From assembly GCF_004010195.1 (NCBI RefSeq), contig NC_057752.1, forward strand, positions 5,323,223-5,387,222: DNA of 64,000 bases, given 5' to 3'. The position numbers were made by a program, and so were the translations under genes. This DNA comes from Chiloscyllium plagiosum (Eukaryota). Positions 2,277 through 63,322 of this stretch are shown here, piece by piece. Position 1 is the first letter of the stretch; each line of letters starts with the position of its first letter. The notes beneath the pieces were generated by a model. It worked only from the letters and a program-made list of their open reading frames with translations, was not told where the DNA came from and made no database searches.

Positions 2277-3941
2277 AAGAGATGTAAAACATGGAAACAG
2301 ACCCTTTGGTCCAACTCATCCATGCTGACCAGATATCCTAACCTAATCTAGTCCCATTTGCCAGCACTTGGCCCATATTCCTATAAACCCTTCTTATTCA
2401 TGTGGAGAAAGTGAGGTCTGCAGATGCTGGAGATCAGAGCTGAAAATGTGTTGCTGGAAAAGCGCAGCAGGTCAGGCAGCATCCAGGGAACAGGAGAATC
2501 GACGTTTCGGGCATAAGCCCTTCTTATTCATGTACCCATCCAGGTACCTTTTAAATGTTGTAATCGTACTAGCCTCCATCACTTCCTCTGGTAGCTCATT
2601 CCGTACATGCACCACCCTCTGCGTAAAAATGTTGTCCCTTAGGTCCTTTTAAGTTTTTCTGCTCTCACCCTAAACCTATGCCCTCTAGTTCTGGACTTCC
2701 CCACCCCAGGGAAAATACTTGTCTATTTACCCTATCCGTGATTTTATAAACTTCTATAAGATAACCTGTCAGCCTCCAATGCTCCAGGGAAAACAGCACC
2801 CGCCTATTCAGTCTCCCCTATAGCTCAAATCCTCCAACCATGGCAACATCCTTGTAAATCTGAACCCTTTTAAAGTTTCACAACATCTGTCCTATAGGAG
2901 GGAGACCAGAATTATGCACAATATTCCAAAACTGGTCTAATCAATGTCCTGTACAGTCACAGCATGATCTCCCAACTCCTATACTCGATACTCTGACCAA
3001 TAAAGGCAAGCATACTAAACACTGCCTTCACAATCCTATCGATCTGCGCCTCTACTTTCAAGGAGCTATGAACCTGCACTCCAAGGTCTCTTTGTTCAGC
3101 AACACTCCCCAGGACTTTACCATTAAGTGTATAAGTCCTGCTAAGATTTGCTTTCCCAAAATGCAGCACCTCACATTTATCTAAATTAAACTTCATCTGC
3201 CAGTCCTCAGCCCATTGGCCCATCTGATCAAATCCCATTGTACTCTAAGATAACCTTCACTGTCCATTACACCTCCAATTTTGGTGTCATCTACAAACTT
3301 ACTATACCTCCTATGTTCACTTCCAATCATTTTACATAAATGATGAAAAACAGTGGACCCAGCACCAATCCTTGTGGGACACCACTGTTCACAGGCTTTT
3401 AGTCTGAAAGGCAACCCTCCACCACCACCCTCTGACTTCTACCTTCTACCCAGTTCTGTATCCAAAAAGATAGTTCTCCTTGTATTCCATGAGATTTAAC
3501 CTTGCAAGCCAGTCTCCCATTGGGAACCTTGTCAAATGTCTTACTGAAGTCCGTGTAGATCACATCCGCTGCTCTGCCCTCATCAATCCTCTTTGTTACT
3601 TCAAAAAACACAATCAAGTTTGTGAGACATGATTTCCCACGCACAAAGCTATGTTGACTATCCTTAATCAGTCCTTGCCTTTCCAAATACATGTAAGTCA
3701 TCAGGCTTCTCTCTAACAACCTGCCCACCAACGATGTCAGGCTCACTGATGTGTGGTTCCCTATCTTTTCCTTACCACCTTTCTTAAATAGTGGAACCAT
3801 GTTAGCTAAACTCCAGTCTTCCAGCACCTCACATGCCCTTTCCTAACTTCCCACAGAGTTCTAGGGTACACCTGATCAGGTCCTGGGGATTTATCCACCT
3901 TGTATGCATTTTAGGACATCCAGCGCCACTACCTCTCTAAT
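2277..3941 (-). mobile_element. CR1 LINE, 5'-truncated (RT region to 3' tail), frameshifted
   Basis: ORF fragments with VPLFKKG, SQHSFVRGKSCLTNL, DFSKTFDKVP, KFVDDTKIGG, WQMKFNLDKC; tail near 2280. Confidence 0.92.
2404..2517 (-). mobile_element. Penelope-like element terminal fragment with partial hammerhead motif, flanked by a 16-bp duplication
   Basis: cccttcttattcatgt occurs at 2388-2403 and 2518-2533. Minus strand reads aagaagggc-ttat-gccc-gaaa-cgtc. Confidence 0.7.
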
Positions 3942-25620: not shown

Positions 25621-27360
25621 AACAGTACAATACAGGCCCTTTGGCCCTCACCGTTGTGCCAACCTTTTATCTTACTCTAAGATCAAATTATCATAAATAT
25701 CCTTCATTTTACTATCATCCAAGTGTCGCTTAAATGTCCCTAATGATTCTGACTACTACCACTGCTGGCAGTGCATTCCATGTAACCACCACACTGTGTA
25801 AAGAACCTATCTCTGACATCTCCCTGAAACTTTCCTCCAGTCACCTTAAAATTAAGCCCCCTTGTGATAGCCATTTCTGCCCTGGGAAAATGTCTCTGGC
25901 TATCCACTCTATCTATGCCTCTCCTCATCTTGTATACCTCTACAAGTCACCTATCATCCTTCTTCACTCCAACATGAAAATCCCTGTCGCCTTCAACTTT
26001 TCTTCATGAGGCATACCCTCTGGTCCAGGCAGCATCCTGGTAAATCTCCTCTGCACCCTCTCTAAAGCTTCCACATCCTTTCTATAATGAGGCGACCAGA
26101 ACTGAACGCAATATTCCAAGAGTGGTTGAACCAGGGCTTTATAGAGCTGCAGCATAACCTCACAGCTTTTAAATTCAATCCCCCTGCTAATGAAAACCAG
26201 GTTGAACTCCATCTGCCAATTCTCAGCCCAGCTTTGCATTCTGTCAATGTCCCGTTGCAACCTCCAACAGCCCTCCACACTATCCAACACTCCTCCAACT
26301 TTTGTGTCATGGGCAAACTTACTATTCCACCCTTCCACTTCCTCATCCAAGTCATTTATTAAAATCACAAGAAAGGTCCCAGAATCGATCTCTGTGGCGC
26401 AACACTGGTCATGGAGCTCCAGGCTGAAAACTTTCCATCTACCACTACCCTGTCTTTTATAGGCCAGCCAGTTCTGCATCCTGACAGCAAACTTTCCCTG
26501 TATCCATGCCTCCTTAGTTTCTGAATGAGCCTACCACTTTGCTAAAATCCATGTAAACCACATCTACTGCTCTACCTTCATCAGCGTGTTTTGTCACATC
26601 CTCAAAGAATTCAATAAGGTTTGTAAGGCATGACCTGCCCCTCTCAAAGCCATGCTGACTATTTCTAATCAAGCTATGCTTTTCCAAATAATCATAAATT
26701 ATGTCTCTCAATCCTCTCCAATAATTTGCCCACCACTGACATAAGACTGGTCTATAATTCCCAGGGTTATCCCTATTCCCTTTCTTGAACAAAGAAATAA
26801 CAGTTGTTACCCTCCAATCATCTGGTACGACTCCAGTGGGCAATGAGGGGACACTATCAGCGTCAAACGTGTAGCATCTCTTCCCGTAGAAACCTTGGCT
26901 ATATCCCGTTTGGCCCAGATGACTTATCTATCTTTGTTTTTCAAAATTTCCAGCACATCCTCCTCCTCAACATCAACCTGTCCGAGCATATCAGCCTGTT
27001 TCACACTGACCTCACAAACGTCAAGGTCCCACTCAGTAGTGAATACTGAAGCAAAATATTCATTAAGGACCTCCTCTGACTCCTGCACAAGTTCCCTCCG
27101 TTATCCCTGATCGGCTCTACCCTCACTCTGGCCATCCTCTTGTTCCTCAAGTGTAGAATGCCTTGGGGTTTCATTAATCCTGCCCGTCAAGGTGTTTTCG
27201 TGGCCCCTACTAGCTATTCTTAAGTCCATTCGTTAGTTCCTTCCTGGCTACCTTGTAACCCTCCAGAGCACTGTCTGTTCCTTGCTTCCTCAACCTTAAG
27301 CTTCCTTCATCTTGACTAAATATTTCACTTCTCTTGTCATCCAAGGGTCCTCGGACATAA
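25621..27360 (-). mobile_element. CR1 LINE, same subfamily as 14980-15795
   Basis: ORFs 25964-26479 and 26514-26843 carry CR1 RT motifs (SQHGFERGRSCLTNLIEFF, KFAHDTKVGG). Confidence 0.92.
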
Positions 27361-28907: not shown

Positions 28908-31100
28908 TACATAGAGTCATAGAGATGTACAACACGGAAACTGACCCTTCAGTCCAACTTGCCCATGCCAACTAGATATCTTAAACTAATCTAGTCCCAT
29001 TTGCCAGCACTTGGCCCATATCCCTCGAAACCCTTCCTATTCAGATACCCGTCTGGATGCCTTTTAAATGCTGTAATTGTACCAGCTTCCACCACTTTTC
29101 TCTGGCAGCTCATTCCATACATGCAACACTGTCTGTGTGAAAAGTTGCCCCTCTAGTCCCTTATCAATCCTTTCCCCTCTCACCTGAAACCCATACCCTC
29201 TAGTTTTGGACCCCGCACCCTAGGGAAATGACCTTGTCTGCATATGCTATCCATGCTCCTAATGATTTTATAAATCTCTATAAGGTCACTGCTCAACCTC
29301 CAATGCTCCAGGGAAAATAACCCCAGCCTATTCAGCCTCTCCCTACAGCTCTAACCCTGGCAATATCCTTGTATATCTTTTCTGAACCCTTTCAGTTTCA
29401 CAGCATCCTTCCTATAGCAGGGAAACCAGAGTTGCAGGCAGTATTCCAAAAGTGACTGAAACAATGTCCTATACAGTTGCAACATTTCCTCCCAACTCAT
29501 ACACTCAAATGCACTGAGCAATAAAGGTTGGCACACCAAATGCAGCCTTCACTATCCTATCTACTTGCAACTCTACTTTCAAAGAACAATGAACCTGCAC
29601 TCCAAGGTTTCTTTATTTGCCAACACTCCCTGGGACCTTACCATTAAGTGTAGAAATCCTGCCCTGATTTGCCTTTCCACAATGCAGCACCTCACATTTA
29701 TCTAAATCAAACTCCCTCTGCTGCTACTCAGCCCATTGGTCCATCTGATCTAGATCCCATTGCACTCTGAGGTAACCTTTTTCACTGTCCACGAAACCTC
29801 CAATTTTGGTGTCATCTGCAAACTTACTAACCATACCTCCTATGTTCGCATCCAAATTATTTATATAAATGATGAAAAGCAGTGGACCCAGCACCAATCC
29901 TTGTTGCACACTGCTGTTCGCAGGCCTCGTAGGAATGTCCTCTAAGTACAGCGGTAATGTTATCTCTAACTGAAAATGCCACTCGTCCTTTCTATCCTTC
30001 CTATAGCACCTATACCCAGGAACATTAAACTGCCAGTCCTGTCTGTCCCTAAGCCATGTTTCTATAATAGGTGTTATATCCCTGTCCCATGTTCCAAAAC
30101 ATGCCCTAAGTTCATCTGCCTCATCTGTCAGGCCTTGAAGTAAATGCAGTTTAATTTGATCACTCTTACCTCATTTTCTGCCAAGCTCTTGTTTGCATTG
30201 ACTGTTTGACTAGCTTCCCTCATCTACTGTACCAGCCTCAGCCTTTTCTCTTTTCTCGCTATTGCTTTGAACCCAAACCCATTCCTCTTACACAGGCCAT
30301 TTCTCCCTAAGGAGATTCCAGTTGTCCAAAAATGTGAATCCTTGTCTCCTGGAGCAGCTCCTCAGCCATGCATTTGTCTGCTCCTAATTCTACTCTTGCA
30401 AGCACATGGCAAGAGTAGTAGTCAAGACATTACTACCCTTGAGGACCTACATTTTAACTTCCTGCCTAGTTTTCTCCATTCTGTCTGTAGAATCTCACCC
30501 CTTTCCCCACTTGTGTCATTGGCGCCAATGTCCACAGTGACCACCACTGGGCACACTCCTGAACATTCTGCACCCTCTCTGAGACATCCGCACCAAGGGA
30601 GCAACACACCAGCCTAATGGTGGCAGCAACATCTGTCTCTGCCCCAGACTATAGAGAGTGCACTATTCTAATCGATTTGCTTGAAACCTGATGTACACCT
30701 CATTACAGTAGATCCAGTGACGGTAGCAAAAACCTGGCTGTCAGTGCTATGCACTTCTGAGAGGCTAGCACCCTCCACCCCAATATCTGAAATGGCATAC
30801 TTGTTTGAGATGGGGATTGCTCCAAGAAATGCCTACACAACTTGGCTATCTCTCTTACCATTCTAAGCAGTTAGCCATCTACCTGACAGTATTTGTAGTG
30901 TCTCCATCTTCCTAAACTGCCATTCTTCTCACATCCCCTTGCTCTTGTAAACACCTGATTGCCTCTGACTGCTGTTCTAACCAATCCATGTGATCTGATA
31001 GGATTCGCAACCAAACACTTCCTGCAGACATAGTTTCCAGAAACATTCAAATTCTCCTTGATCTCCCGCATCTGACAGGAAGAGCTTATCACCCTACTAA
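28908..31100 (-). mobile_element. CR1 LINE with large internal deletion, retaining ORF1 (zinc finger plus SGNH esterase) remnants
   Basis: RT motifs QGLVLGPLLF.IYINNL and KFADDTK; ORF1-like SCQM.E...YVCRKC and V.IGAND...LGRKLK.RSSRVV.S. Confidence 0.85.
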
Positions 31101-40590: not shown

Positions 40591-41717
40591 GTTCCATTGA
40601 AGCTACTAGTAGTAGTGTGGAAACAGCAATTCAAAGACGACAAACGTCTGATGTTGGCACCAAGGAGCAGGTGGAATCTCAATCTCTTATTTCTTCAGAG
40701 GAAGGTGGGGTTGAAGACTTAACTACAGTGAAAGAGTTTGAACATGAGAAACCTGATGAAGGATTCCATTCTTCTCCAAATAGAGATGTTTGTCAGACTT
40801 CTGAAACTGGAGGAGGTGCACAACCTTCTGAGAGCATTAAAAGTGGAGTAATCACTTCAGTGGAACCTTTGTCTGCAGGAAAAGAATTGCCAGAACATTT
40901 CAGTTTGGATCCAGCAGACCAGTTGGAAGATTTTATACAGGAGAAGGAAGTAAAAATGGAGAGCTCGGTTTCTCTGTTAGACCAGGTAGAGCCAGGTCTT
41001 CCTGCAGAGATGGGTGTCAGTCCCACTGGTTCCATCCCAGAAGAATTGAAACCCCACCGCCTTATCTCACACCCTGACCTGATGGACTCTGCTAGTAACT
41101 CTGCCGAAGCACAATTAGACTCTGCCACCTCTGTTTCGATCAAGCAGGAGACTAACCAAATCCAAACAGACAAAACTGAGCTCTGTGACATTCCTGCTGA
41201 TTCAAGCTGTAGCTTCGTGGAGAGGGGTGAAGTTTCTGATATAGTCTCGGATGGAATGGAGACCAGGGATAATCCTGTTGAAATGGAAGTTAATGATATT
41301 GTGACCCCTATGGAGGTTGTACCTGCAGTAAATAAGCTAAAGACTGAGCAAGATGCTCAAATGGAGGTGCAGGATATTGGGAGCACAGACCCTGTCAGTA
41401 ACATGTTCATTAAATCCGAGATAGTAGAGGAAATATCGAATCAAAGTCAAACGGACTCGAACAGCACCTGCTTGGAACCAGATTATCCAGTTACTTTGGA
41501 CCGTGATCCCAGTCTGGCTACTATGGATGTTTGCATGACCGTAGCAGATGATGTTTCTCCAAGGGTGGAAGAAGAAGCTGAAAAGTCCAATTCAGACCTC
41601 CGGTTAACAGAAACTGAAGATTCCCTCCCAGCTGACTCTGGAATGATGAAGAGTGAATCTGGCAAGCCTGCTATAATGAAGAGGCGCTTTTCACCAGGTC
41701 GCCCTCGAGTCAAGCAG
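40591..41717 (+). CDS. KMT2D: KMT2D coding exon 11 (large acidic linker ending FIKSEIVEEISNQSQ...KRRFSPGRPRVKQ)
   Basis: Lies within the 408-aa ORF 40584-41810. ttttgacag acceptor, cag|gtaaac donor, 1127 nt. The IKSEIV.EISN.SQ block resembles KMT2D IKSDIVNEISNLSQ. Confidence 0.93.
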
Positions 41718-42079
41718 GTAAACGAGGAAGAAAGGGCTTTATTATTTCAAAAATATGTCTTTTATAATCAACCTCTACAGCAATGTTATTACACATCTCT
41801 ATCCAGGTAGGACTTGAACCCAAGCTGCCTGGCTCACTCTTAAGGAAACTACCACTGCATATCAACATCCCTGGTTTTTGAATTTTAGCTGTGATTGAAA
41901 TAGAAGATTGTCCACTTAATGAAACAACTTTGAATGGATATTTTGAAGGTTCTGTGCAAGAGTGCACAGACATGCACACTTTTTCCTCCTTCCTTCCATA
42001 CCATAAGCTTTTGAAGCTTGTGTGGATCAGTTAACAGCATAGACTGGGAATCGGACAAATGGCTATGCAAATGCACGAA

Positions 42080-44295
42080 GTTTATGGTACTGAAGGAAAG
42101 CTATTCAGCATATTGTCTCTTTGTTCTTGCAATCCAAAACTAATCCTATTGGCCTGTTGTCCCCCTCTGCTTCAAATAACTTATTTCATTTCCCTTGACC
42201 AATTTTAAGGTGTCAAGTCTCAATCACTTTATGGTGATTTATATTACCCTCACATGAATCGCCATGGTCTCCATCAAACCTTTTGGGAATTTTCCAAATG
42301 TGTGAACTAAATTTCATTGTTGTTTCTGATATGGTGCAAATACTATTGGCTTTTACTCATGCTCATAGTTTCCCATCTCTGGCGTAGTTTTGCTGTACAC
42401 TTTCTATAGAGTAGACATGACTTGCAAACTGTGGCCTAACTAGTATATTGTGAAATTCATCCCTATTTTTAGGTGCCTACTTGTATTTCTACTGATTTTC
42501 TTTAAAAACAAACTTTTTAATAACTATTTATATTTTGAACCTTCAGCAAATCATATATTTGAATATCCAGGTTTCGTATTTCTTTTTACCCCTTGATCAA
42601 CTACCTCATCGACAGCCTGTCATACATTCTGCTAACCTGCCTGTCACCCTGAAGTATTTTACAGAGCTTCTCTCTCTGTTTAATTATTCACTTCCTATTG
42701 TACCAGCAACAAGAATAGGCTATTCAGACCCTTGAGCCTGATTTGGCATTCACATGGCTTGTGATTGATCTGATTTTTAACTTCAAATCTGTATTCCCAC
42801 CTGTCCCTTATCATCTTTCACTTCCTTGTTTAACCAGAATCTATCCACTTCTGCCTTTTTTAAAAAAAAATTCAAGGACCCCCCTTCCTGAAAAGGTTGT
42901 GGAAACAGAATGCCAAAGAGAGACAACCTTCAGAGTAAAAAGATTTCCCATATTTATGCTGTATTTGCACATCTTTACTGTCTCATTTTAACCTTTTCTG
43001 TAACCTCCTCACGTCACCTTTGCAACTTATTTTCTTATCTATCTTTGCGTCATCAGCAATTTTGGCAGTCATACCTTCCACTCATCGCAGCTCGTCAATT
43101 CTCTGCTTAGTCAATCTTCAATTCATACCGATATGTTACCTGCATACCACGAGCAGTAACCTTTAAGGCAGTTTATCAAATGTCGTCTTTGGTCACCCTT
43201 AATCCACAGCACAAATTGAACTCCAATGGATCGGTCAAAAATGACTTCCTTTTCACAAAACCTTATTGACTTGGCCTGATTCGCCTGAATTCATCTTGGT
43301 GTCCTGGTACAACTACTTTCTTAATAGCATTTGATATTTGCCCTATGGCAAGTGTTAAGTCAACAGGCCTATAGTTCTGTCTTTCTTTTTGAATAAAGGA
43401 GGAACATTCGCTGTCCTCCATTCCAGAATCAAGAGAACTTTGGAAATTTAAAACTGATGCATCTCACTAGTTACATCTTTTAAGACTACATGATAAAATC
43501 CATCATGATGTAGGTGCTTGTCAGTCTCTGATTTGTGATTTTCTGTCTGTCCCTCTCTTTCATTTCCAAATTTATCAATGCTTCTGTGTTGTTTGGTTCA
43601 TTCTGACAGTTTCTTATTTTCCATTGTCAATTCTTCAGGCTCACTTTGTTAACTCTTTTTTTCTAAATATTTATAGGAACTCCTTGCCATCCGTTTTAAT
43701 ACTTTTATTGTACTCTAATTTTTGACTCAGTTTAGTGGGTCTGCCTTACTGCTTAACCTATTAGATTTTAAGTAGAGCAGTTCTACCTGTTTCTCATCTT
43801 TACTCTGCACTATCATATAGGAAGTAGGAGCAGGAGTAGGCCATTCTGTCCTTGTTGTAATCTACCATTTGGCATGATCATCCAGTTCAGTATCCTGTTC
43901 CTCCTCTTTCTCCACTTACCTTTTAATACCTTTGGTCCTAAGAACTGTATCTAATTCCTTCTTGAAATCATTGAATTGTCTTGCCCTCTTGTATGCCCTC
44001 CTTTCATACATCAGTCCTACCATCCCAGAAGTCATTCTGCAAACCCTTATTTCATGAAATCAGGAGACCAAAACTGCATGCAGCATTCCATTAAGGTCTC
44101 ACCACAGCTCTGTACAATTGCAGCAAAGCATCCTTGTTGTATCCAAATTCTCTCGCCATGAAAACCAATATACTGTTTGCTGCCTGCTGCACCTGCATGC
44201 TTGCTTTGATTGCCTTGGTACACCAGCCAAGCAACTCTTGTTGCATCTCCAGCTTTCTCAATCTGTTGCCGTTCAGATAATCTGGCCCATGTTTA
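42080..44295 (-). mobile_element. Several highly degraded CR1 fragments
   Basis: Tails at about 42710 and 43815; LLQLYRAVVRP remnant. Confidence 0.65.
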
Positions 44296-44309
44296 TTCAC
44301 ATCCATGTC

Positions 44310-44770
44310 TAGGTGTATGGAAGGATCCCACTGCACTGATCAAAGAAGCGCAGGGAAGTTCTCCCATTCTTTGGCTAACAATGAAAAACTAATTATTTGG
44401 TAATCTACAACAAGGACAGAAGTTGCTGGAGGGGCTTAGCAAGTCCAGCGGCGTCTGTGAGGGGAGGTCAGAGTTGACGTTTTGGGTCTGGTGACCCTTC
44501 CTCAGGACTGAGGAGGTTCTGGAGAGGGGTCACCAGACCCGGGGCATTGGCTCTGGCTTCTCTTCGCAGATGCTGCCAGACTTCTGTTTTTGTATCTGAT
44601 TTGCAGTATCTGCAGGTCTTTCTGTTTTTATCCAGTCATCTGTCATTGCTGTCTCTGAGACTTTCTATGCACAGTGGCTGCAGTATTTCCTACACTGCAG
44701 CAGTGAATATTTTATAAAGCGCTGCATTGCCTATAGAACATTTTAGATCATTCTGATGTCATGGATGCAA
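44310..44770 (+). mobile_element. DeuSINE 3' half, interrupted by a palindromic Penelope-derived insert
   Basis: ggatcccactgcact...gcagggaagttctccc, and after the insert gtcattgctgt...tggctgcagtatttcctacac. Confidence 0.6.
44407..44630. mobile_element. Palindromic Penelope-like terminal element (two inverted hammerhead-derived arms), A-to-G hypermutated
   Basis: Arms 44454-44509 and 44515-44570 are inverted. Minus strand of the left arm reads CTGAGGA-a-gggtc-acca-gaccc-aAAA-CGTC. Confidence 0.75.
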
Positions 44771-44955
44771 CATTGCTATGTTTGAGAAGGTCACAGCCTC
44801 CTTGTTTAAGCTTCTTCTTTGTTCTTTCTCTGCCAAGTGTACCACTTTATATGTCTTTTGCATTGAACTGCAGCTGCCACCTGATTGCCAACTCCTCAAA
44901 CCCAGCAATTTCTTCGAATCTCCTGGTTTTAAAGAGTAAATTAATTTTCTTTATA

Positions 44956-45222
44956 TATTCATGAGATGTGGATGTCACTGACTAAGCCAGTGTCTATAGT
45001 CCAGAGGGCAGCAAACAGTTAACCACATATAGACCAAACCAGGTAAGGATGGCAGGTTTGATCCCTAAGTGGACCAGATAGGCTTTCCCAACAGTTAACA
45101 GTGGTCATCATTCCAGATGTTCTTTTTATTAAATTCAAATTCCGCCACCTACCGAATCAGAATTTGAACCTGGGTTCCTGGGCCTCTGAATTAATAGTCT
45201 CATAGATGATACCACCGCCCCC
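44956..45222 (-). mobile_element. tRNA-derived SINE (second family)
   Basis: Similar to 33480-33800. Confidence 0.65.
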
Positions 45223-45869
45223 TATCTACACTCTACCTCATACTTATCGAATAGAAGTACTTGTCATGGGCTGGGAAGTGAGAAATATGTTTTTGTTTTG
45301 ATTCAGAATTGAGGAATGGGAAGAGAGAAAAAAAACTATAAATAAATAGGAAGGACTTAAAGTGATATGGGCTAAATGCTAGCAAATGGGACTAGATTAA
45401 TTTAGGATATGTAGCCGGCATGGACAAGTTGGGTCTGTTTCCGTGTTGTACAATTCATATGACTATTATACTTCGTTTGCTATGCATTAACCACTCACTC
45501 CGCTTGTCCAAATCACCTTACTTCTGAAAGCCCTGCTCATCTGTATAATGTCCAACAGCATCACCTGCAGGCAGAGGATTATCTTCACATGCATACTGGC
45601 AAAACATCAACAGAGACTGTGGAGGAGGTGGGAAGAAGTGCTTATCAGACATGCAGTGTTGGATGAACCACTGGCCATTCATCTTGTTGCTACCTGTAGA
45701 ATTTGTCAGTGTTCAAATTTCATGTCACCTCATCAAAGTCAATGCATTTCAAAGTCAGTAAATGAACTACACTGGTGTGTATCTTCGACACTTGATTATA
45801 TGCTGCATAAGTTCAAGTCCATTTCTCTTCAAACATATTTGGTTATTGTGTACACTTACATCTCACTGC

Positions 45870-46769
45870 AGTAAGACACAGGAAATCGAGCACCACTATT
45901 CCCAGGGTTGTCACAAAGCAGACTTTATAAAAGTACTTAAAGTTCCCCAATTTGCCTGTCTTTTAGACCCAGGTTGACAGAGAGCATGGACCAGATTTCT
46001 GTACTTAACAATTACTATTTATTACAAATAAATAGTCTAGCTGTAACTAAACAAATGAACTGTCAACATATAACTATATAAAACTCTAACCTGCTTATAA
46101 AACCTCCTCTCTCCAAACACTCAATATCTATGACTTTATTTCTTTGAGTGCAAGGAAATACTAGGAAGGCAGTTCAATGGGCACTATCCACAAAGTTCTC
46201 TGTGATGATCCTTTTGTCTCATCAGGACTTGCTGCTCCTCAATCTTCTTTTCCCAGGTCCTTTCGCTTGCTTGTAGGTGGCACTGAGTGACTGGTTCCCA
46301 TTTAAAGTCTTTGACTTATTGGTTAAGAGCCATGGCTTACAGCAACTTATGAGGTGAAATGAACTGACTTCTGTCAGGCTTGAGACTTTTTTTTTTCTGT
46401 AGACAAAAGGACACCACCTGCCTTTTTAGATGTCCAGTTAGCTTCTGTTCATCTACCTGGGAACAAATCACAATTGTTGGCAGCCAAAATAATCTTTGTC
46501 ATTGACAACTTGTCACCATCCACTGACCAATCCGCTCCTTGTTCCTGGCTGCATTTCCCTTCATGCACACCCCTGGTTCCAGATAATCTGTAGTAAACCT
46601 GCCATTCTGCTTGCACAGACCGTAGTTTAAACAGCACTTTCAACCAATGGCTAGTAACTTGTTTTTGAAAAGTGCTGTAACCTTTGCTTGGTTTTTAAAG
46701 CAGTCCTTTTCCTATTTCAGTCCACGACCAAAAATACACACAATTTAAAAAAAAAGGGTCTTTGTAACA
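45870..46769 (-). mobile_element. Candidate solo LTR
   Basis: Starts (a)gtaagac and ends gtaaca; flanks actgc/attgt could be a decayed 5-bp TSD; AATAAA on the minus strand near 46020. Confidence 0.35.
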
Positions 46770-47065
46770 ATTGTCATGCTTTGACTTGAGCAAAGCAATA
46801 TTGAGTGAAGAGCAGTTGCTGCTGTTGTCAGTTATAGAAGTTCTGGATGTGAGGTTGGGGGGAGTGGCGGCTGGTGGGTAGAGGTGGGTGATCATGTGGT
46901 TTAAGATATTGTGAGGATGATGGTTCTATTGGGACTTGCCCGATGATTCCTTTTTATCCCTCCCCTCTGAGTTTACATGACACTGTCACATGTATTCAGA
47001 ATTTCGCAGCTAAAGGTAATTTTTTTAAAAATGTGGAATTTAAAACATTCATTATTTTGCTTCAG

Positions 47066-47179
47066 GGTCGTTGCAACAGTTTTCCAGGCAAAAAACGACC
47101 CCGTGGTGGCGGGCATGTTGGGCGAGGACGAGGGCGATCACGTTTGAAGTCTGTGTCTGGAATCTTGGAGTCTCTAGGG
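47066..47179 (+). CDS. KMT2D: KMT2D coding exon 12 (GRCNSFPGKKRPRGGGHVGRGRGRSRLK)
   Basis: ttttgcttcag acceptor, ggg|gtaaga donor, 114 nt. Confidence 0.95.
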
Positions 47180-51339: not shown

Positions 51340-52310
51340 CTAAAGCAGTTTTCTTCAGAAAATGCTTGAAATTATGAGATGGTGCACTTTGAAAAGAATG
51401 TGGCGAGAGAATTCATGCTAATTTTTAAAGGGGGTGCAAGCCGAGGGTGACTTGGGGATGCTTGTACATGTTTATTGTGATAAGGACAGGCTAACAAAAC
51501 ACCATGTGGGATTATAGATTTCATAAATAGAAGCATAAAAGGTAAAAGCTAAAGTTCTGCTGGGCCTATTTTAAGCTAAAATGATGTGGCCCAGCTGGAA
51601 TGTTGTATTTGATTTTGAACACCATACTTTTTAGAACAGATATAAAGGCTTTGGACAGAGTACAGCAAAGATCTAAGAGAGTGGTTACAGTGATGATGCA
51701 TTATAGTTACATAAGGACTGGATCAGCTGGTGTTGCTGTCCTTAGAGCAGACAAGGCTAAAGGAAAGCAAAAGACTGCAGATGCTTCAAATCTGAAGCAA
51801 ACACAGATTTCTGGCAGCATCTGTGGAGAGAGAAACAGAATTAACATTGAGAGTCTAGTATGGCTTATGGCTATACCAGACTCGAAACATTAAATCTGTT
51901 TCTCTGCTCAAATGATGCCAGATCTTCTGAGTTTCTCTATTTTCTGCATTCATTTTAAGACAAGGGAAGACTTGTTAGAGGCTTAAAATCAAAGTATTCT
52001 GAGAGTTAATAAAGAGCGCCTGTTTCCAGTGTTGTTCCGTCTGTTGCACAGCTTTAAGACAATTGGCAAAAGAACCAGAGGCAATGTTAGGAAAATCTTT
52101 TACAAATCAAGTGGATTTGGGTTGAACTGTTTGGGTGGTGATACACATTCAATAATGGCCTTCAGAGGGGTATTGGTGAAAAGATGAGAGGAAAGAAAAC
52201 ATGCAGGTGAATGGAGGAAGAGCAGTAGAGTGGACATAACTGGATTGTATTTTAAAAGAGCTGGCACAGGCTCAGTGGACTGAATGTGTTCCTATACTGT
52301 ATTATTCTTC
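51340..52310 (+). mobile_element. Old CR1 3' portion with a palindromic Penelope-like insert at about 51767-51955
   Basis: DIKALDRVQQR remnant; insert arms ggcagcatctgtggagagagaaacagaattaac and ttaaatctgtttctctgctcaaatgatgcc. Confidence 0.7.
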
Positions 52311-63224: not shown

Positions 63225-63322
63225 CCTTCAGAAGAATCACTGGACTCAAACGTTAACTGTGTTTCTCTCTCCACAGATGCTGGCAGACCTGCTGAGTTTC
63301 TCTAGTAGCATTTGTTTGTTTT
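63225..63322 (+). mobile_element. Penelope-like terminal fragment (degenerate hammerhead region)
   Basis: gaagaatcactggactcaaacgttaactgtgtttctctctccacagatgctggcagacctgctgag is the same family as 44515-44630. Confidence 0.65.

Follow-up and report, generated by a model that had tools for sequence, protein, structure and literature searches.

Likely ADAR-type A-to-G hypermutation in palindromic Penelope-like insertions of a shark genome

Editing fossils and Penelope-like insertions

ADARs hyper-edit inverted repeats in pre-mRNA, and the changes normally remain in RNA. Fixation of such hypermutation in DNA has been described for avian retroviruses, namely Rous-associated virus (Felder 1994) and avian leukosis virus (Hajjar and Linial 1995), in which, according to the available parts of the accounts (PMC12925331, PMC8586724), nearly half of the adenosines in an inverted-repeat region were converted to G and fixed by reverse transcription. 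The shark insertions described here resemble these cases, but the element is non-viral and Penelope-like, stands in the germline, is common to several organisms and was once amplified as a subfamily. A second parallel is offered by the fossils of APOBEC DNA editing in LTR retrotransposons (PMC4866542, PMC2873906): as far as the accessible portions of those papers go, both systems show strand-biased clusters of a single substitution type fossilised in genomic retroelement copies, whereas the LTR elements carry G>A because cytidines in their single-stranded cDNA were deaminated and the shark copies carry A>G, restricted to a fold-back stem and found in either polarity. With hyper-edited pre-mRNA the shark element has in common the long intronic hairpin and the preference for 5' U or A over 5' G that is given as the ADAR neighbour rule in the accessible part of PMC8586724; unlike in pre-mRNA, the changes stand in DNA, and the depletion at 5' G is weaker.

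Endonuclease-bearing Penelope-like elements are described as leaving inverted-pLTR-plus-tail insertions and as carrying minimal hammerheads (PMC3846280, PMC4209133, PMC11167929). In the parts of these sources that are available, the layout consists of a head-to-head inverted pLTR, an optional tail of 30-40 nt and target duplications of 8-15 bp (PMC3846280, PMC11167929), the pLTR ribozyme is a minimal hammerhead whose position 9 is followed by an extra base (PMC4209133), and antisense templates have been proposed for the insertions (PMC3846280). The copy studied here shares this layout; it differs in having no ORF between its arms, and editing goes unmentioned in the same parts of the three descriptions. 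Among the papers listed in a literature search there was no report of ADAR-edited copies of Penelope or of other non-viral retroelements in genomic DNA.

The intronic palindrome and its substitutions

The window, the whole 64,000-nucleotide stretch of Chiloscyllium plagiosum DNA that was analysed, contains a fold-back element within an intron, 41718-47062, whose host gene lies on the + strand, encodes PHD fingers and is closest to KMT2D/KMT2C. The relevant features are as follows.

40593..41717, + strand: upstream exon of the KMT2C/KMT2D-like host gene (exon prediction, homology)
44399..44406, + strand: candidate decayed target-site duplication, left copy; 6/8 match to 44634-44641, weak
44410..44509, + strand: left arm, a Penelope-like pLTR in inverted orientation; against the family majority, 13 A>G and 1 T>C
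44510..44514, + strand: inter-arm junction, copy-specific in the family; the present form recurs in unedited copies
44515..44592, + strand: right arm, direct pLTR; 10 A>G and 1 T>C
44519..44545, + strand: predicted minimal hammerhead core (CUGAGGA, extra A, stem II, GAAAC); CUGANGA and GAAA positions altered
44593..44630, + strand: unpaired 3' tail; 1/6 adenosines altered
44634..44641, + strand: candidate decayed target-site duplication, right copy; 6/8 match to 44399-44406, weak
47063..47179, + strand: downstream exon of the host gene (exon prediction, homology)

The host gene is read as about 20 exons over 16300-60654 (+), and its non-repeat intron sequence has a T-over-A skew of +0.084. Elsewhere in the window, reverse-transcriptase fragments of intronic retroelements (Pfam RVT_1) lie on the - strand at 3402-3842, 26517-26927 and 29727-30170. 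A 24-nt inverted match (43844-43867 against 44398-44421, 88% complementary, 530 nt apart) overlaps the edited left end of the element and is probably due to chance.

With its inverted pLTR, direct pLTR and 3' tail the element has the layout of a Penelope-like insertion, and on this layout it is assigned to the inverted-pLTR-plus-tail class with a minimal hammerhead, in agreement with a preliminary description of the locus, which had placed it among the Penelope elements. The ribozyme itself is a prediction: the core, including the extra base after position 9, is present in the family majority by pattern match, while the Rfam search of the window returned no family at gathering score, and one unedited family copy gave generic hairpin matches below gathering only and no hammerhead model. 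On the + strand the GAAA at 44541-44544 is destroyed, as first noted, and so is CUGAGGA; two older pLTR relatives in the window, at 51770-51910 (-) and 63230-63320 (+), retain unedited adenosines at the hammerhead positions, also in agreement with that account. A single long stem is predicted for the + strand, with a folding energy of -139.9 kcal/mol (z -11.6); the - strand reaches no more than -85.6.

A recount of the 56-bp arms 44454-44509 and 44515-44570 gave the same figures as the preliminary description: 18/56 positions are mismatched, transitions without exception, comprising 16 G.T appositions (the G lying on the left in 5 and on the right in 11) and 2 C.A. A G.T apposition can arise from A>G or from C>T, and the fold alone gives no direction; the preliminary description had overlooked C>T as a source of G.T, an ambiguity that is removed by polarising the sites with family copies. 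For this purpose the window copy was aligned with 22 further palindromic copies, whose majority state served as the reference. They come from a DNA search of the shark's own genome (3.56 Gb; 1654 candidates, of which the best 40 were scored and 30 loci fetched), after removal of three duplicate loci and of four whose tail gave no orientation. In all 22 an inverted arm is joined through a variable junction to a direct arm, which is followed by a tail of about 38 nt, and an unedited 18-mer of the family has 14,214 exact matches in the genome.

Against this majority the window copy shows A>G at 24/56 positions and T>C at 2/64; its remaining substitutions are 3 C>T, 3 G>A and 3 transversions. Pooled, the 22 other copies show A>G at 59/1305 (4.5%) and T>C at 56/1522 (3.7%). 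The A>G changes occupy both arms on one strand only, as had been claimed, and when A-T pairs altered on one side only (unmirrored) are counted, 18 G.T stand against 1 A.C (one-sided binomial p 3.8e-5); in 51 two-arm copies chosen without regard to A>G, no more than 5 unmirrored changes of either kind occurred. The proposal that A is ancestral is supported, and the outer-arm positions 44414 and 44415 are A>G by family majority, as reported. It fails at 44483/44541, where the G is the family state and the T sits at a CpG-type site. Position 44515, one of the 16 G.T, lies at the variable junction, and the G at 44467 is mirrored by a C at 44557 and is probably an inherited variant. An APOBEC-type signature was looked for and the window copy had only the 3 G>A and 3 C>T, with no G>A clusters. 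The right arm carries a 21-nt deletion between 44579 and 44580; editing likely preceded it, since the partner positions in the left arm, 44431-44433, carry edits. An attempt to polarise the flanks of the element, labelled a DeuSINE in the preliminary description, in the same way found 1 and 0 related copies.

The Gs are inherited DNA and not a base-calling or assembly artefact, an outcome that the preliminary description had left dependent on further samples. The comparisons were made at the level of assembled contigs. In another individual, a contig (X5) runs across 44150-44787 and differs at a single position, which lies outside the element. Two related organisms carry most of the Gs: in organism B the element is covered by three overlapping pieces (X9), and in organism C a contig covering 44431-44583 (X19) has 9 other letters against the 22 A>G sites in its span, a count that is a bound because differences under deep family contigs are hidden. 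Of these 22 sites, 44542 reads A in organism C. By depth, the flanks of the window element are single-copy.

Further edited palindromes and an amplified subfamily

At least eight further strongly hypermutated palindromes, in both polarities, were found on other contigs by searching with patterns in which two or three sites had to be A>G, so that the following unmirrored ratios (G.T to A.C) include 2-3 forced sites.

A>G on the tail-last strand: L031 16:0, L032 10:0, L035 16:2, L057 12:1
Opposite strand altered: L038 1:14, L054 1:12, L055 0:11, L103 0:12

L059, L061 and L119 were left out of this strict count as weak (Fisher p 0.07-0.30), L050, L051, L053 and L060 as partial or mirrored, and most matches of the two-site patterns were background or other subfamilies. 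Of the control patterns, triple C>T had 0 matches and triple G>A had 21, with no comparable clusters; 11 two-arm copies from the G>A control had at most 8 unmirrored changes of G-C pairs, forced sites included. L032 and the window copy have 12 edits in common while their flanks are not in common, and L057 is an edited palindrome lying inside another pLTR of a related family. Hypermutated arms may make up on the order of 0.5% of the family, a rough estimate based on 8 non-window matches of one triple pattern against the 14,214 unedited matches.

The pooled copies define the signature more closely. Over 12 copies, with forced sites removed, 164/509 stem adenosines (32%) were altered against 8/94 in the tail (9%; p 7e-7). 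Under strict scoring of 9 copies, the rates by 5' neighbour were U 8/11, A 46/98, C 26/98 and G 23/87, which for U/A against G gives p 0.0012 over a background that is flat at 5-7%. The ADAR neighbour preference predicted for the locus is therefore found in the pooled copies and not in the window copy alone, where 5/13 adenosines after a 5' G are edited and the depletion is not significant (p 0.27). Even in the pool the depletion is modest, as 26% of adenosines with 5' G are still edited, the same as with 5' C, and in the four opposite-strand copies it is not significant (p 0.24). A 3' G preference was absent from the pool (3' G 34/110, A 43/95, C 16/63, U 10/28). The pooled 5' order U>A>C~G follows that of ADAR, and ADAR is the likely editing enzyme, as judged from the signature only.

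One of the edited palindromes was re-amplified. L103 and L115, on different contigs, have their edits, a centre deletion and their flanks in common, and a search with L115 gave 40 matching places, these being the best 40 of 4008 candidates; it favoured copies resembling the query, so that an unedited parent could have been missed. The carrier alignment comprises 31 loci, 30 fetched (L233-L262, e.g. G000:C30:39207338-39207708) and L103. All 31 have one and the same nested palindrome, with a 15-bp target duplication and the centre deletion, in the 3' part of another Penelope-like element, the carrier; on this sequence evidence one edited hairpin spread to at least 31 loci. Founder-state changes in the subfamily are T>C at 17/55 against A>G at 2/52, and both of the latter are at family-variable sites. 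The carrier element encodes an RT and may end in a GIY-YIG-like domain, a lead at present. Among the 26 loci with an ORF match, 23 have the carrier ORF immediately past the palindrome and on the edited strand, and 3 have it inverted, the other 5/31 loci having no match; the carrier-sense strand has the better predicted fold in 31/31. At least some of the opposite-polarity copies are accounted for by this subfamily. CpGs newly created by the edits have decayed in many of its copies, as is expected since germline DNA is methylated. The suggestion that the window copy records a restriction of Penelope elements by ADAR finds no support in these data, given that edited copies are rare and that one edited palindrome amplified to this extent.

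Among the carrier loci, the sister copies L238 and L242 show additional T>C in the stem, and the carrier flank just 3' of their palindrome has three A>G, perhaps from a later editing round on the other strand. In the wider family, a similar lead to a GIY-YIG domain comes from an upstream sense ORF piece in longer copies, for which GIY-YIG-bearing look-alikes were found in the 1 tested of 20 such copies (score 0.95, the family being on 33% of members); tblastn of the 20 longer copies against a homologue of the carrier element gave no match.

Routes of the edits into the germ line

We consider it probable that the window copy is a Penelope-like hairpin insertion whose one-strand A>G changes were made by ADAR on folded RNA and fixed in the germline by reverse transcription, most likely at a new insertion. 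The first step is seen in the family, which makes insertions of inverted pLTR, direct pLTR and tail with copy-specific junctions and, in most copies, target duplications of 9-15 bp. A genomic palindrome of this kind would then be transcribed through both arms to give an RNA stem of about 100 bp. ADAR would deaminate about 40% of the stem adenosines, as suggested by polarity, stem restriction and neighbour preference, and a Penelope-type reverse transcriptase would read inosine as G and integrate the copy. The resulting Gs were inherited, being common to another individual and the two related organisms, and in other copies the new CpGs later decayed. Palindromes probably form anew at insertion, because junctions vary and unedited copies with no relation to this one can have a similar junction. 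Since changes would be mirrored if the edited template had one arm only, edits of the same strand in both arms would require RNA from an existing palindrome that was edited as a hairpin.

The carrier subfamily is the best evidence for reverse transcription of edited RNA. Against the reading as a new insertion count the weak target duplication of the window copy (6/8), the A at 44542 in organism C and the lack of an unedited parent: a junction search gave 35 matches, the window copy included, and no parent was found among 29 fetched of the 34 other similar-junction loci, 0 of which were hypermutated and none of which had more than 2 changes in common with the window copy, those being common and non-A>G. 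Nor was a sibling found among the best 40 of the 1654 candidates. Among L143-L172, many copies that are otherwise unrelated have a recurrent junction which forms a short palindrome of its own and resembles snap-back synthesis. The copies L018 (a 1-nt insertion) and L003 (two substitutions) have private changes mirrored in both arms, which suggests either one common template for the two arms or later homogenisation.

A rather unlikely alternative is that the palindrome was inserted unedited, transcribed within the KMT2C/D-like pre-mRNA and rewritten in place, the edited intron RNA or its cDNA having templated repair of its own locus. The edited strand of the window copy is at once the pLTR sense strand and the host pre-mRNA strand, and this sense intronic position fits such a rewriting as it fits a new insertion; the want of a parent, and the occurrence of both polarities with standard ends and target duplications (L054 15/15; L057 12/13, a 13-bp duplication), also speak for it. 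Host orientation was examined at ten other edited loci (T-A skew, exon prediction and Pfam, 96 candidates): concordant one-sided exons were found at L038 and L119, a weak discordant one at L061, L057 was uninformative and six had no match. A new insertion is favoured because the carrier subfamily shows that an ordinary retro-insertion route exists and because organisms B and C already have most of the edits in common.

It is improbable that one DNA strand was itself deaminated at adenines, by ADAR acting on an RNA:DNA hybrid, present in an R-loop or formed as the RNA was reverse-transcribed, or by an unknown activity on a DNA hairpin. ADARs do edit DNA in RNA:DNA hybrids in vitro, according to the available part of PMC12925331, and both polarities occur; however, a hybrid would not spare the tail in the way recorded above, separately primed cDNA arms would give opposite polarities per arm instead of the same polarity, and the carrier subfamily is edited on the carrier's RNA-sense strand. 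Ordinary mutation, subfamily variation, arm-to-arm conversion or a hairpin sequencing or assembly artefact is scarcely credible, for although so large a family will have outliers and a few apparent A>G such as 44467 are inherited variants, the A>G count against a 6% rate has a binomial p of 1e-14, subfamily variants and conversion would give mirrored changes, and the same Gs in other samples and organisms refute an artefact.

Returning to reverse transcription of edited RNA, A-to-I editing is usually treated as an RNA-only process, and the shark copies show its signature in inherited DNA; they are the ADAR counterpart of APOBEC-edited retroelements and keep a datable trace of ADAR activity, and of its site preference, in the germline of cartilaginous fish. 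Edits of the same strand in both arms imply that a palindromic RNA, whatever its polarity, can be copied into DNA over its full length, which bears on an open question of Penelope biology, and the amplified subfamily indicates that a hyper-edited RNA was still able to retrotranspose. A bolder proposal, offered tentatively and on balance doubtful, would make ADAR a heritable mutagen of Penelope-like elements: hairpins would be re-transcribed from either strand, hyper-edited and written back to the shark germ line, an edited RNA could found a subfamily, and intronic copies might be rewritten in place from the edited pre-mRNA of their host.

In practical terms, edited copies would mimic RNA editing when RNA reads map to unedited paralogues. 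No RNA source was listed for the element's stretch of the window. On the copy L003, X22 gave zero reads and the RNA run X21 gave 1253, which mix many copies and related families and have all change types raised; places with A>G or T>C against those with C>T or G>A numbered 27 against 45 in the RNA (X21) and 12 against 29 in DNA contigs (X1).
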